Part shown: positions 33,863-54,818 of the stretch, piece after piece | How the letters are laid out: every line of letters begins with the position of its first letter | Numbering within the stretch: the stretch's first letter is position 1 | Origin: Candidatus Nanohaloarchaea archaeon | GTDB taxonomy: Archaea > Nanohalarchaeota > Nanosalinia > Nanosalinales > Nanosalinaceae | Length of the DNA stretch: 57,186 bases | Assembly: GCA_041640075.1 (NCBI GenBank) | Contig: JBEQAY010000003.1 | Span: 1-57,186, forward strand | Direction: 5' to 3' | Position numbers and translations under genes: made by a program | The notes under the pieces: generated by a model | The model's database searches: none | What the model was told of the DNA's origin: nothing | Seen by the model: the letters and a program-made list of their open reading frames with translations, nothing else

Positions 33863-34004
33863 CGGACCTGAAGGGATTTGAACCCTCGACTTCGAGGTAT
33901 CTCCATCGAAGATCTGATATCTCCTCGAACCGTCTTTCCTTCATGTATGCTTCAAGAAAGCGGTATTAGGAACCTCGCGCTCTGTCCAGCTGAGCTACAG
34001 GCCC
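33863..34004 (-). tRNA. tRNA-Arg(CCT) with 68-nt intron at 37/38 (33899-33966)
   Basis: GGGCCTG/CAGGTCC acceptor, CGAGG/CCTCG anticodon stem, TTCC:GGAG central BHB helix, GGTTCAAATCC T-arm. Confidence 0.92.
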
Positions 34005-50670: not shown

Positions 50671-50955
50671 GTGAGTAGAGAGATCTGGGAGACTGAGGAA
50701 ATCGATAAAGAACTTCTGGACGGGTTTCTGGCAAGATTCGAGAAAGACGCCTACCGCTCAAACAGGACAAAGTTCGAGGATATGGAGGCTGAAATCCATT
50801 TCAAGTATACTTTTGAGAGATATGCAGGTGAGGAAAAATGGACTGGACAGATCTCTGTAGAGGTCTACGACGACTACTTCCAGGCACGCGGCGATGAAAC
50901 CCTGCTCGATGAGTACTTCACAGATGAGAGAATCCAAGAACTGGAACTCGACTAA
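50671..50955 (+). CDS. Hypothetical protein
   Basis: 94-aa acidic ORF, divergent from the yfcE-like gene. Confidence 0.55.
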   Translation: MSREIWETEEIDKELLDGFLARFEKDAYRSNRTKFEDMEAEIHFKYTFERYAGEEKWTGQISVEVYDDYFQARGDETLLDEYFTDERIQELELD

Positions 50956-51005: not shown

Positions 51006-51752
51006 TTACAGTAGATCTTTTTCCTGCATGCCTTCCTCTATCTCCAGAAGCGCCTCTACTTCGTCATCTTCGAGATTGTGGTTGTTGACTTCGTCGTCTC
51101 TCTGACCTGTGATTCTTCCAAGCAGATCTTCTGCCAGTTCTTCTTCCAAGTTCTCATAGTCTTTTTCCTCGTCGTGCTGGAACTCTCTGTTCGGGAATGC
51201 TCTGTAGCCGAACTGCATCTCCTGGTTCATCGGTGCCTTGTAGAACCAGCCTATTCTTATCGGCTGGAAACCGTGTTGTCCTCTCTGGCTTTCGAGTCCT
51301 GCGTCGACTGCTGCGGTCGCCTGAACCTCCATCCCGTCAAGTTCGTCCGCAACCTGTGCACCTGACCTGGCGGAAGTTGAGAGGGATCCGATATGCCAGT
51401 GATCCAGGTCGTAGTCTAGTTCATCCACGACAGAATCTATGGTCCCAGCAGTTTCCTGAAAACCGTCTACATTCCCCATTTCATAGTCCACAGGAAACTG
51501 TTCGTCCTGTACTCCTTCATCTCCGACGCCTCTGACAATCACATAGACAAAATTTTCGCCGAACGAATCTACAATATTCTCTGTTTCGTCGATTGGTGGT
51601 GCAACGGTTCTGACCTGGTACATGAAGTCCTCGCCGTAACCGTTAGAAGAAAGCTCATCTGCAACATCAACCATCTCAGATTTTACAGAACCCCTTTCGA
51701 CGTAAACTTCGAGCGGTTCAGGTCGCCGACTTTCCGAAATAGTTCTTTTCAT
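51006..51752 (-). CDS. Hypothetical acidic protein
   Basis: 248-aa ORF directly downstream of gatC. Confidence 0.65.
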   Translation of the reverse strand: MKRTISESRRPEPLEVYVERGSVKSEMVDVADELSSNGYGEDFMYQVRTVAPPIDETENIVDSFGENFVYVIVRGVGDEGVQDEQFPVDYEMGNVDGFQETAGTIDSVVDELDYDLDHWHIGSLSTSARSGAQVADELDGMEVQATAAVDAGLESQRGQHGFQPIRIGWFYKAPMNQEMQFGYRAFPNREFQHDEEKDYENLEEELAEDLLGRITGQRDDEVNNHNLEDDEVEALLEIEEGMQEKDLL

Positions 51753-51763
51753 AAGAAAAAATT

Positions 51764-52042
51764 CTAGGCGCTTGGGCCTTTGAAGTAGCCTTCTTCCTCG
51801 TTATCCGTGTTCTGGAAGACTTCCTCTTTATCCAGTGTCTCTCCTTCCCTGTCAGGTCTTGTCTCCGAGTCTACTTCAATCGGGTGGAAAGCTGGTTCAA
51901 CGTCTTCAGTATCTATTTCATCGAGTTTGTCGAACATCTCCAGAATGCTTTCAAACTCGTCTGCGAATTCCTCTGCCTCTTCTTCATCAATGTTTATTCT
52001 TGCGTTCTCTGCTACATCTTTGACTTGTTCGACATCAACCAT
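51764..52042 (-). CDS. gatC: Asp/Glu-tRNA amidotransferase subunit C
   Basis: VAENARI, ILEMFDKLDEIDTEDVEP and EGYFKGP. Confidence 0.92.
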   Translation of the reverse strand: MVDVEQVKDVAENARINIDEEEAEEFADEFESILEMFDKLDEIDTEDVEPAFHPIEVDSETRPDREGETLDKEEVFQNTDNEEEGYFKGPSA

Positions 52043-52128
52043 GTAAACCAATATGTAGAGAAGATTTTTGTATCATCAAGGTATTGAATACTAGAGTTTA
52101 TCGAGGAATAGTGAAATTTCTCCAAACA

Positions 52129-52402
52129 TTTATAAACTAGCTTTAGGAAAAGTTAGTTAGTAAGAATCACTTATTGTTTGACTCTGGTGGGACAGGTCAA
52201 ACGGACTTGCCTTCAACTCGGTGGGACGAGCTTGAGGCGAACATCGAACGTTGATCGTCGACTTCAAGGTGGGACTTGAGTCGAATCGTGAAACATTGGG
52301 AATTTGCATGTAAGTTGGGATAACTTCTAAGGTAGAGTTAGGTCTGCCGACTTAAAAAACTTTGGTAGACTCGATGCTATCGCCGAGGACGGTAAACCAA
52401 TA
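52129..52402 (+). promoter_or_regulatory. ftsZ promoter and long structured 5' leader with three GTGGGA-loop hairpins
   Basis: TTTATAAA at ~52129; hairpins at 52176-52202, 52209-52238 and 52258-52284, each with a G-GTGGGA-C loop. Confidence 0.75.
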
Positions 52403-53470
52403 ATGGAATCAATAATCAACGACTCCGAAAACACTGAAAACCCCAGTCAAAATCTGGACGATGTCAAGGACGCTAAAATCCTTGTAGTCGGATGTGGAGG
52501 AGCTGGTAACAACCAGATCACACGCATCCAGAACAAGGACGTTGAAGGCGCCGAGACAGTAGCAATAAACACTGATAAGCAACACCTGGAGATGTCCTCT
52601 GCTGACAGAAAAATCCTTGTCGGCCGGGACCTCACCAAAGGACTGGGAGCTGGCGGACAGCCAGAGAAAGGTGCACGAGCAGCAGAAGAAAACCGTGCAG
52701 AACTACGCAACCTGTTCAAAGACGCAGACATGGCTTTCCTCACCGCAGGAATGGGAGGAGGAACAGGAACAGGAGTCACACCAGTACTTGCAGAGATAGC
52801 AAAGAAAGAAGACTGCATCGTAATCGGAACAGTCACAATGCCTTTCGAAATCGAAGGCGCAAGAATGTCAAAAGCTGAAGAAGGACTATACGAACTAAGA
52901 CAACACGTCGACACTGCAATCGTAATCGAAAACGACAAACTACTCGACATCGCAGGCGACATGCCGCTAGACCAAGCATTCGGAGTAGCAGACGAACTAA
53001 TCACAACAATGATCAAAGGAATCACAGAAACAATCTCCAAGCCTTCACTGGTCAACCTGGACTACGCAGACGTACAGGCAATCATGAACAACGGCGGAGT
53101 CGCAGTAGTAGGATACGGAGAATCAGATACCAACAGTAAAGGAAAGGAAGCGATTCACGAAGCACTCTCAAATCCTCTGCTCGACGTCGAGTTTGAAGGC
53201 GCGAACGGAGCACTCCTGCACGTTGCTGGAGGTGAAGACCTCACACTGAACGAGATCAACGAGGTCGGACAGCACGTCAAGGAAAAGCTTGACAACCAGG
53301 CACAGACGATCTGGGGTGCCCGCGTAAGAGAGGACCTACAGGGCAAGATACAGGTCATCTCGATCATTACAGGAGTAAAATCACCTTACGTCCTCGGAGA
53401 ACTCGACGAGGAAGAAGAAACAGAAGTCACAGGAGACGTCAACGACCTGGGACTGGAACTAGTTGACTAA
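52403..53470 (+). CDS. ftsZ: Cell division protein FtsZ (FtsZ2-like)
   Basis: GCGGAGNN, GMGGGTGTG and NLDYAD; KAEEGL and PSLVNLDYAD resemble the archaeal FtsZ2 clade. Confidence 0.97.
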   Translation: MESIINDSENTENPSQNLDDVKDAKILVVGCGGAGNNQITRIQNKDVEGAETVAINTDKQHLEMSSADRKILVGRDLTKGLGAGGQPEKGARAAEENRAELRNLFKDADMAFLTAGMGGGTGTGVTPVLAEIAKKEDCIVIGTVTMPFEIEGARMSKAEEGLYELRQHVDTAIVIENDKLLDIAGDMPLDQAFGVADELITTMIKGITETISKPSLVNLDYADVQAIMNNGGVAVVGYGESDTNSKGKEAIHEALSNPLLDVEFEGANGALLHVAGGEDLTLNEINEVGQHVKEKLDNQAQTIWGARVREDLQGKIQVISIITGVKSPYVLGELDEEEETEVTGDVNDLGLELVD

Positions 53471-53699: not shown

Positions 53700-54248
53700 A
53701 TGGAGAGAAGAGGTTTCAACGCTGTAACTGCTCTGGCGCTTTTACTGGGCGTGGCGTCCGCAGCGATACTTTACCTGGATCCTGAGTCCATGAGGCTGAC
53801 AGCTGCTTTAACCGGTTTATCAGGTTTCCTGCTTCTTGGTTATGCACGTGATAGGTCGGTGTCTCTCCCAAATCTTAGCCAGGTGAAGGTCGAGTTGAAT
53901 CTGGCTGAGCAGATCTTTGAACTGCTTTTACTGGTGTCGCTGCTTGTCAGCGGACCTGTCCCAAAAGAAGTCGGTTTAGGTATACTAGCTGCTCTTCTGT
54001 TCCTGAAGATCTCCGAGGAACAGATAGCCAATAATCTTAAGATGAACCTTGAATCCGGCCTAGGTGTAAGCTACAGGGTTTACACGTTGATAGGTTTGAT
54101 CGCTATCTCAAGTTTCAACAGTTACTTCCTGTTCTACGGTTCGTTCGTCTACCTGGGAATAGTGGTCTACGATATCTTCAACATTTTCTACCAGTTCTAC
54201 GAGAACAGAAAAGGTGTGAAACTGAAAAACCGTATTCTATCTAACTGA
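53700..54248 (+). CDS. Hypothetical membrane protein
   Basis: 5-6 hydrophobic segments. Confidence 0.65.
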   Translation: MERRGFNAVTALALLLGVASAAILYLDPESMRLTAALTGLSGFLLLGYARDRSVSLPNLSQVKVELNLAEQIFELLLLVSLLVSGPVPKEVGLGILAALLFLKISEEQIANNLKMNLESGLGVSYRVYTLIGLIAISSFNSYFLFYGSFVYLGIVVYDIFNIFYQFYENRKGVKLKNRILSN

Positions 54249-54311: not shown

Positions 54312-54818
54312 ATGAAGGCGCCAATATGTAACGTATGTTTAAAGAGCGATGTTCTCTGTAGCAGCTGTGAGGAGAAGCTGGAGAACGGAGAGATAACGGA
54401 ACTCGAAATCAAAGTATCAAGAATACTGAAAGATCTCAGCAACGAGTACGGCTCACTGCGAGACTCAGAGATCAAACACGTCTACGACACGGAGAACGTA
54501 CTTGTCATCGTCACCGCTGAAGGAGACGGTGCAAAAGTCGTAGGACGTGGTGGAGAAATCGTCAAGGAGATTGCAGATAGAGTCGACAAAAGCATCAGAG
54601 TGGTCGAGGCTTCTCAGGACGACAGAGAAGTTATCAAAGGATTATTGAGTCCTGCAGAGATCGAGTCAATCAATACTGTTTTCAAGCCGGATGGACAGAG
54701 CCAGAAAGTGGTTGTTTCAGACGAGTACGAAGGTAAGATCAATCTTTCCATCGAGGAACTTGAACAGCTGATCAGCGATATCACCGGCAGCGATTACGGG
54801 ATCGCCTTCGAGGAATAG
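54312..54818 (+). CDS. Archaeal NusA-like KH-domain protein with N-terminal Zn motif
   Basis: PICNVCLKSDVLCSSC; KH motif VVGRGG. Confidence 0.85.
   Translation: MKAPICNVCLKSDVLCSSCEEKLENGEITELEIKVSRILKDLSNEYGSLRDSEIKHVYDTENVLVIVTAEGDGAKVVGRGGEIVKEIADRVDKSIRVVEASQDDREVIKGLLSPAEIESINTVFKPDGQSQKVVVSDEYEGKINLSIEELEQLISDITGSDYGIAFEE

Follow-up and report, generated by a model that had tools for sequence, protein, structure and literature searches.

What occupies the region upstream of ftsZ in a nanohaloarchaeal genome in which most genes look leaderless? The stretch analysed here, called the window throughout, comprises 57,186 nucleotides (nt) of Candidatus Nanohaloarchaea archaeon (GenBank assembly GCA_041640075.1, contig JBEQAY010000003.1, positions 1 to 57,186 of the forward strand). 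In the window, ftsZ and the divergent gene gatC are separated by a spacer of 351 nt (52052-52402), in which a preliminary description of this DNA had noticed three tandem hairpins showing the same GUGGGA loop on different stems. We found that the spacer holds a real, previously undescribed structured RNA that lies upstream of one ftsZ paralogue throughout the phylum Nanohaloarchaeota and is, in kind, a multi-hairpin regulatory leader. To our knowledge, few cis-regulatory RNAs are known in archaea, and membership failed for every known RNA family tested.

A hairpin array upstream of one ftsZ paralogue

The three hairpins with GUGGGA hexaloops were recovered with start coordinates shifted by at most two bases (Table 1). 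Their stems differ in sequence and all pair, each stem is bulged and each hexaloop is closed by a G-C pair, as had been described. The two additional TTGGGA motifs are likewise present, at 52296 and 52315, the second of them within a small hairpin of the minimum-energy fold (AAGUU-GGGAU-AACUU, 52312-52326). A last hairpin, said to overlap a GAGG that resembles a Shine-Dalgarno (SD) site, fared less well: GCCG-AGGA-CGGU occurs in the minimum-energy fold of the window sequence only and was not traced in relatives.

The array is a pattern beyond chance. The genome of the window (G000; 0.98 Mb, 46% GC, 89% complete) holds 205 copies of GTGGGA on both strands, and only the copies in hairpins 1 to 3 (hp1-hp3) are carried by long stems (10-13 bp with bulges). 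Among the 570 sites of the wider pattern [GT]TGGG[AC] in the same genome, the sole cluster of at least four within 200 nt is the ftsZ leader. The window count of GGTGGGAC (four versus 1.2 expected, at least four in 4 of 100 shuffles; three of the four in the array) is weak evidence on its own. Folding z-scores of the region were -3.25 for the + strand and -3.74 for the - strand, so alike that folding energy alone cannot tell the strands apart. We also noted a 50-amino-acid (aa) open reading frame (ORF) running antisense through the hairpins (52157-52309, - strand); it is not conserved in relatives and most likely spurious.

The second ftsZ paralogue of G000 (49% identity; contig C4, 12595-13626, - strand) has no such upstream region. 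It is preceded by a 215-aa ORF that looks FKBP-type, with no GGG-loop array.

Conservation, covariation and strand

The comparison covered 70 nanohaloarchaeal genomes of one order, in 63 of which the region upstream of the ftsZ orthologue was examined. A DNA search of 41 related genomes yielded 20 loci, 18 of which hold ftsZ, and pattern scans added 23 further genome loci and 51 metagenome loci. Of 92 loci screened, 71 showed the conserved 3' box (described below) followed by an FtsZ start MESI(I/L); the other 21 were chance matches or cut contigs. Two more loci were left out, with contigs that end before the TATA box. The final set for the window's family comprised 48 distinct leaders of 235-305 nt, counted from 12 nt before the TATA box to the ATG. 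Named records with the conserved 3' box were Nanohaloarchaea, including Candidatus Nanosalina; two of these records share an identical leader with two genomes from a common genus.

At least two GGG-loop hairpins precede the ftsZ orthologue in 61 of the 63 genomes. Of two further genomes, G016 carries three hairpins with 7-nt CUUGGGA loops, which the hairpin finder missed, and G028 has UUGGCG loops. Conservation of the element thus spans the phylum. Four genomes of the window's genus have a leader that the DNA search recovered at 70-74% identity; in other genera of the family it returned a pair of conserved islands, formed by promoter and 3' box. All 18 loci with ftsZ have this gene after the region, and 17 have gatC before it.

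A bulge-tolerant search of the 48 leaders detected 106 hexaloop hairpins, with the loops UUGGGC (68), GUGGGA (25), UUGGGA (10), CUGGGA (2) and UUGGGG (1). Three or four such hairpins were found in 31 leaders, two in 3, one in 6 and none in 8; 14 low-scoring leaders carry CGGGCA or UGGGCA loops instead. Counted with no pre-selection for pairing, 105 of the 199 TGGG words in the 48 leaders belong to a hexaloop with a closing stem of 4 bp or more, versus 78 of 3,626 in the rest of G000. In four other families, whose ftsZ orthologues share 72-78% identity, a TATA box is followed by two to five hairpins with UGGGC, CGGGCA or UGGGCG loops; the arrangement lies 290-345 nt before the ATG in most of them. 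One genome (L107) shows three UUGGCG hexaloops instead. Relatives also carry one to five extra UGGG(C/A) motifs after hp3, some in small hairpins, and hp2 is the best conserved hairpin of the family, with invariant columns. Upstream regions of the second ftsZ paralogue (~50% identity) hold zero to two TGGG in 13 loci.

The GUGGGA loop had been called invariant, which holds only for the genus of the window and for some other genera. All loops within a leader are of the same flavour, which varies by lineage (GUGGGA in the window, UUGGGC in most, then CGGGCA/UGGGCA, UGGGCG and UUGGCG). The part constant across the phylum is (U)GGG followed by C or A.

Plain MAFFT alignment followed by RNAalifold predicted no pairs for the hairpin array, because a sequence alignment cannot align covarying stems of unequal length. 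We therefore built a covariance model (R1) with a structure given by hand, the 21 pairs of hp1-hp3 taken from one bulge-free member. Applied to 93 loci it gave 81 matches, 72 of them distinct, which served as the covariation alignment. In this alignment 81.5% of cells are paired, versus 70.5±0.6% in 500 shuffles, none of which reached the observed value, and 27-43% when partners were slid by one to three columns. Compensatory changes occur at 19 of the 21 pairs, with 217 double-change cells versus 81±12 in shuffles. They affect five of five pairs in helix 1 (hp1), seven of eight in helix 2 (hp2) and seven of eight in helices 3 and 4 (hp3), where 85-91% of cells are paired. Even within the window's genus the hp1 stem reads GUUUGAC/GUCAAAC or GUUCAAG/CUUGAAC and the hp2 stem CUCG/CGAG or CUUG/CAAG. 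The stems covary, as the proposed selection on RNA structure would have it.

R1 also tied the array to its gene. Searched against the 70 genomes, the model gave 49 matches in 48 genomes and none elsewhere at E ≤ 0.01. By family, matches were found in 43 of 49 genomes (plus G000), 2 of 10, 2 of 8, 0 of 1 and 0 of 1; R1 was trained on one family, so misses in the others are expected. When the tables were compared by eye, 48 of the 49 matches ended ~55-135 nt before ftsZ on the same strand, and the remaining one lies in a genome (G063) where ftsZ was not found at the threshold used. One genome, G055, holds two leader copies (C12:755-937 and C63:1686-1864), each before an ftsZ match, one of which is cut by a contig end; this may be a duplication or two strains in one bin.

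The linkage is to ftsZ, as the element still precedes it where the upstream gene is not gatC. Such neighbours are a class II aminoacyl-tRNA synthetase (aaRS; two loci), a protein with a tRNA-editing domain (one), a divergent ORF without a Pfam family (L102) and a co-directional gene without a known family; L103 has the element although its upstream gene is co-directional and none is divergent. In most loci examined the divergent gene is a tRNA-charging gene: gatC in most, a synthetase of the class II Asp/Lys/Asn type in two or the tRNA-editing-domain protein in one, the latter two kinds being noted at L101, L107 and L108. This is curious beside an RNA that displays UGG, and may only reflect an old aspS-gatC neighbourhood.

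Three features bear on the strand. Among internal non-Watson-Crick pairs flanked by Watson-Crick pairs, we counted 53 G·U versus 17 A·C; a looser count that allowed mismatches to extend stems gave 84 versus 56. TGGG occurs 199 times on the + strand of the 48 leaders and once on the - strand, and CCC runs are nearly absent. Judged from these sequence features, the excess of G·U over A·C, the ftsZ-directed promoter and the lack of oligo-T runs place the RNA on the ftsZ strand.

From promoter to FtsZ: function and alternatives

The array lies downstream of a promoter, P1, that consists of a purine-rich B recognition element (BRE) and a TATA box. The motif (A/G)AAC/G-A-TTTATAAA is conserved among 18 aligned loci of the family, ~45 nt 5' of hp1, and most of the 63 genomes have a TATA-like box 200-345 nt before the ATG. 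The TATA box is a perfect palindrome in a divergent spacer and might serve gatC besides ftsZ. Its BRE flank is conserved on one side only, the ftsZ-distal side ((C/G)(A/G)AAC/G-A), as for + strand transcription. In G000, TTTAWA most often begins 31-30 nt ahead of a start codon (these two positions account for 24 of 622 crude ORFs), which indicates that leaderless mRNAs are the norm and that the distance from TATA to start is ~30 nt. Transcription from P1 is thus predicted to start at ~52159-52161, 16 nt before hp1, and the leader would measure ~243-245 nt. Two remarks of the preliminary description, that the hairpins begin after the TATA-predicted start and that so long a leader is unusual here, both agree with this arrangement.

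Transcription would then have to run on into ftsZ. A run of five or more T is a termination signal in archaea. Such runs are absent from all 48 leaders, versus 11.8 expected from mononucleotide shuffles. We also count the SD-like site before the AUG in favour of read-through, and in several genomes an SD-like GUGAU lies upstream of any start that the inner TATA-like box could direct. Together these features suggest transcription from P1 through to ftsZ.

Between the array and the start codon lies a 3' domain. Its box (UUCUA-AGG-UAGA(G/A), Table 1) is almost invariant in columns 7-19 of the 48 leaders and shows no covariation, so that a reading as RNA and a reading as DNA are inseparable there. 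It is followed by a hairpin whose A-rich loop contains an inner TATA-like box. This box, T(T/A)AAAA, is found in 58 of the 63 genomes, in most of them 35-61 nt before the ATG (range -35 to -93). A stem of at least 5 bp surrounds T[TA]AAAA in 53 of the 58, versus 49% of shuffled flanks. The stem differs in sequence by family (e.g. CGCGCC/GGCGCG, GCAUCG/CGAUGU, CUAUACC/GGUAUAG), and its ratio of G·U to A·C is 26:10; pairing by differing sequences and the preference for G·U speak for a transcribed hairpin. In 33 of 63 genomes a strict SD-like word stands no more than 22 nt before the ATG, and GG-N-UGAU is found in many of the rest. Many members of the family (L001-L018 and relatives) carry (A/G)GG-N-UGAU(A/G)C, 8-14 nt ahead of the ftsZ start codon. 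The motif is reminiscent of GGUGAU within a long Shine-Dalgarno sequence, although just 159 of the 622 crude ORFs of the genome have an SD-like word.

We propose, with a probability of about one half, that the element is the conserved, structured ~245-nt 5' leader of the mRNA of one ftsZ paralogue and a multivalent landing pad for a trans-acting factor that sets the FtsZ level. Transcription would start at the canonical promoter P1. The RNA would fold into three core and one to three accessory hairpins, with stems free to vary and loops that show UGGG followed by C or A, and the near-invariant 3' domain (UUCUA..UAGAA box and UUAAAAA-loop hairpin) would lie directly before the SD-like site and the AUG. 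The identical, repeated loops may bind one factor. Most probably this would be an RNA-binding protein, either oligomeric or multi-domain, and its specificity would have drifted together with the loops. Occupancy of the array could then alter translation initiation and/or the lifetime of the ftsZ mRNA; control of FtsZ synthesis at either level is suggested by the position of the element.

The partner could be a protein or an RNA. One loop flavour per leader that differs by lineage fits co-evolution with a single partner; neither an intramolecular G-tract structure nor an invariant CCA end would predict such concerted change. G000 contains no cluster of the reverse-complement word, that is, no multi-copy complementary RNA, which makes a protein the likelier partner. 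No conserved ORF was found within the leader on either strand of the 48 leaders. Downstream of ftsZ we noted a 168-aa protein (54312-54818, + strand) that combines a CxxC...CxxC zinc ribbon at its N terminus with a KH domain like that of NusA, and whose gene lies 0.3-2 kb from ftsZ throughout the window's family (0.9 kb in the window). We rejected it as the partner: in other families it is located on other contigs (f2-f4) or ~5 kb away (G028, f5). A link between the element and host contact, raised in the preliminary description, is supported by nothing seen in the analysis.

Several points weigh against the proposal. Start site, read-through and expression are all predictions from sequence. 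The covariation alignment was fitted to the structure of the model and the genomes are related, hence the shuffle counts overstate significance. AT-rich leaders L104-L106 (family f3) carry one T5, between the second and third hairpins; this single TTTTT, which has no counterpart in the 48 leaders of the window's family, could be a partial termination site. No binding-protein candidate emerged, and the KH/Zn-ribbon gene is adjacent in one family only, not phylum-wide. Neither an ANTAR nor a CsrA gene was detected in G000: the best PF03861 match scored 17.5 bits versus a cut-off of 27.3, with no match in control genomes either, so that the sensitivity of this search is unproven, and no PF02599 match was obtained in the 89% complete genome. 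G000 also yielded no second target with the same hairpins; outside the leader, the only intergenic [GT]TGGG[AC] hexaloop hairpins of at least 4 bp (C9:8583 and C15:13294) are single and weak. For the 3' domain, the stem around the inner box is paired in 75% of cases within the family versus 71% in shuffles, which is slight support, RNAalifold on the plain MAFFT alignment gave eight pairs and -1.3 kcal/mol, and the near-invariant sequence is almost without covariation and holds many palindromes and direct repeats, as an operator would. We therefore treat the 3' domain as RNA that possibly doubles as a DNA signal.

The inner T(T/A)AAAA, ~50 nt before the ATG in the window, could be the real promoter of ftsZ and the array a separate transcript. 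P1 would then drive a non-coding hairpin-array small RNA of ~170-200 nt that stops short of CTTAAAAAA and serves a UGGG-binding factor as sponge or scaffold, and the palindrome-flanked box, a site for a transcription factor, would give ftsZ a short leader with an SD site. Adding 30-31 nt to the inner box places a start at ~52381, with a 21-nt leader that holds GAGG. The conserved distance of the box to the ATG in most of the 58 genomes, its nearly invariant, palindromic and little covarying surroundings, and the resemblance of the multi-hairpin layout to sponge RNAs agree with this, as does the binding of Haloferax CdrS to DNA upstream of the ftsZ1 promoter, reported in the accessible text of PMC8406309. 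We nevertheless regard it as unlikely. None of the 48 leaders has an oligo-T terminator between array and inner box, the purine-rich BRE of P1 has no counterpart at this box, and the stem around it pairs with differing sequences across families at a G·U to A·C ratio of 26:10. Its distance to the ATG varies from -35 to -93, so that in some genomes a start from it would cut off the SD-like word, and the array is never found apart from ftsZ. A reading of the inverted repeats purely as DNA, as operators or cruciforms for transcription factors at the gatC and ftsZ promoters, would explain the divergent spacer, the perfect palindrome TTTATAAA and the palindrome-rich, nearly invariant 3' domain. It is highly improbable for the array, where the arms differ and the asymmetric spacer does not, although a dimeric DNA-binding protein needs the reverse, and where G·U exceeds A·C by 53 to 17 and GGG outnumbers CCC by 199 to 1 between the strands. 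Least credible of all is a - strand RNA, the leader of the divergent tRNA-charging genes (gatC or AspRS-like), read from the TTTTTAAA box with GCCCAA/UCCCAC loops. In its favour, most loci have gatC as the divergent gene, two have a class II aaRS and one has a tRNA-editing-domain protein, the inner box is a TATA sequence whichever strand is read, and the - strand folds as well as the + strand; yet the G·U pairs of the + strand (53:17 and 26:10) would become C·A mismatches, L103 has the element and no divergent gene, and it is the distance from the array to ftsZ that is kept, not that to the upstream gene.

The leader might also work without a protein, as an RNA sensor whose tertiary fold answers a small molecule, an ion or an RNA end and gates the SD site and AUG, for example through a K+ G-quartet hub or an aptamer in the 3' domain. 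At least four GGG runs are found in 60 of 63 leaders, with almost no CCC runs, and K+-stabilised G structures would be strong in extreme halophiles. The SD-like site directly follows the invariant 3' domain, and pairing of the U-G-G core with a 3' CCA end, the principle of T-box leaders, is conceivable. Even so, we consider such a sensor decidedly doubtful. Three genomes have fewer than four GGG runs (G003 and G016 three each, G028 none), and the bases beside GGG change in concert by lineage, which neither a G-quartet nor an invariant CCA would need. The hairpins and a classical four-tract quadruplex are mutually exclusive, the hairpins being the selected fold, and no Rfam riboswitch or T-box matched. 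Its most specific form appears more doubtful still: a riboswitch-like class, the first specific to DPANN, in which the GGG loops of at least four hairpins pack as a G-rich hub in molar K+ or capture the CCA ends of uncharged tRNAs and, with the 3' domain, open or close the ribosome-binding site of ftsZ. If a protein-independent sensor did exist, division would be gated directly by ionic or nutritional state in a host-dependent organism. Under our proposal of a factor-bound leader, the element suggests that cell division is controlled post-transcriptionally in obligate symbionts whose genomes measure ~1 Mb and whose timing of division is an open question. The loop word that changes in concert by lineage offers a direct handle for finding the partner, and R1 can annotate the element in new genomes.

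Three ORFs that flank the locus encode proteins without a Pfam family: a 182-aa membrane-like protein directly after ftsZ (53700-54248, + strand), a very acidic protein of 248 aa (51006-51752, - strand) and a 94-aa protein (50671-50955, + strand).

Table 1. Positions in the window of the leader features, of ftsZ and of its divergent neighbour.
Feature	Position	Strand	Description
Promoter P1	52122..52136	+	BRE-like purine-rich CCAAACA, then TATA box TTTATAAA at 52129-52136
Hairpin 1 (hp1)	52176-52202	+	GTTTGAC-t-CTG / GTGGGA / CAG-GTCAAAC; loop 52187-92; bulged U
Hairpin 2 (hp2)	52209-52238	+	GCCT-t-CAA-CTCG / GTGGGA / CGAG-c-TTG-AGGC; loop 52221-26; two bulges
Hairpin 3 (hp3)	52258-52284	+	TCGACT-t-CAAG / GTGGGA / CTTG-AGTCGA; loop 52269-74; bulged U
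Two extra UUGGGA motifs	52296-52301, 52315-52320 (region 52296..52327)	+	Read from sequence; second in small hairpin
Near-invariant UUCUA-AGG-UAGA(G/A) box	52325..52337	+	TTCTAAGGTAGAG; 5-bp mini-hairpin or palindrome
3' hairpin	52341..52371	+	GGUCUGCCGA / CUUAAAAAACU / UUGGUAGACU; 10 bp, loop CTTAAAAAACT; minimum-energy fold
Inner TATA-like box (P2)	52351-52359	+	CTTAAAAAA; in A-rich loop of 3' hairpin
SD-like GAGG	52385..52388	+	14 nt before ATG
ftsZ	52403..53470	+	355 aa; Tubulin/FtsZ GTPase domain and FtsZ_C; gene behind the element
gatC	51764..52051	-	Divergent neighbour of ftsZ, outside the RNA element

Comparison with known RNA families and regulators

No Rfam 15 family matched the element at gathering thresholds in the window, where only two tRNAs were reported, and the loci of 18 relatives gave no match; a permissive scan of 51900-52600 (E up to 10) returned three matches at chance level (E 3.5-5.6). 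The statement that no described motif fits therefore stands. One tRNA match (33863-34004, - strand; 51 bits) spans 142 nt, was not reported by ARAGORN and is probably an intron-containing tRNA gene. Other identities were dropped in turn. In G000 the signal recognition particle RNA is encoded on C22 (110 bits), and C9 contains the top-scoring candidate for RNase P RNA (38 bits, below the cut-off). H/ACA and C/D guide RNAs, a tRNA-like element, a pseudogenised cdrS and an anti-SD mimic were considered and discarded, and the 7-mer shared with 16S helix 45 is at chance level. An upstream ORF or cdrS-like gene is not supported either, since ORFs of at least 25 codons agree in neither strand, frame nor length across the 48 leaders, many of which lack one altogether. 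Beyond Rfam 15, a full-text literature search returned, in the accessible parts of the texts, no description of such an element, whether for DPANN archaea or for archaeal ftsZ.

Several known systems resemble the element in part; in ANTAR targets, CsrA sponges and iron-responsive elements, as in the array, repeated identical loops on variable stems are the means of recruiting multivalent binders. Iron-responsive elements of eukaryotes combine a bulged stem with a conserved CAGUGN hexaloop and are repeated in one untranslated region for one protein reader, which regulates translation or mRNA stability. Bulged stems capped by a conserved, repeated hexaloop are common to both; the loop sequence differs, and no iron-responsive element family scored in the Rfam searches. 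The CsrB and RsmZ sponges and the leaders bound by CsrA present GGA on many hairpins, a multivalent capture of a small dimeric regulator of translation. The display of one short G-rich loop word on many hairpins is shared, whereas the word here is UGGG(C/A): GGA arises only in the GUGGGA and UUGGGA lineages and is absent from most, and 68 of 106 loops are UUGGGC. Moreover, the element exists as a single copy that stays in cis, upstream of one gene, in a genome without a detected CsrA. In bacterial T-box leaders a UGGN bulge pairs with the NCCA end of tRNA. An exposed U-G-G word in a structured leader and tRNA-charging neighbour genes are similar, but Stem I, specifier and terminator/antiterminator are missing here, the word is repeated in hairpin loops, and no T-box family of Rfam matched.

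Dedicated regulators of ftsZ or ftsA expression are a further parallel, with KhpA/EloR in Streptococcus and CdrS in Haloferax. In these sister halophiles CdrS acts on DNA at ftsZ1 and ftsZ2 and binds upstream of the ftsZ1 promoter (PMC8406309); the accessible text of that paper describes no such RNA element, and the leader studied here has no cdrS-like ORF.

The targets of ANTAR proteins are likewise tandem hairpins of 5' leaders, for example in the Enterococcus eut operon, with conserved bases in the hexaloops and not in the stems. According to the accessible text of PMC8934654, ANTAR hexaloops carry A at position 1 and G at position 4. Position 4 is G in both systems, whereas none of the 106 loops found here has A at position 1 (U, G or C instead) and positions 2-5 read UGGG. 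The second ANTAR hairpin competes with an intrinsic terminator, unlike the 48 leaders, which contain no T5, and the targets comprise two hairpins, as opposed to three to six in this archaeal host. A possible further likeness is the manner of reading, in which the loops are contacted individually by a protein dimer (PMC8934654).

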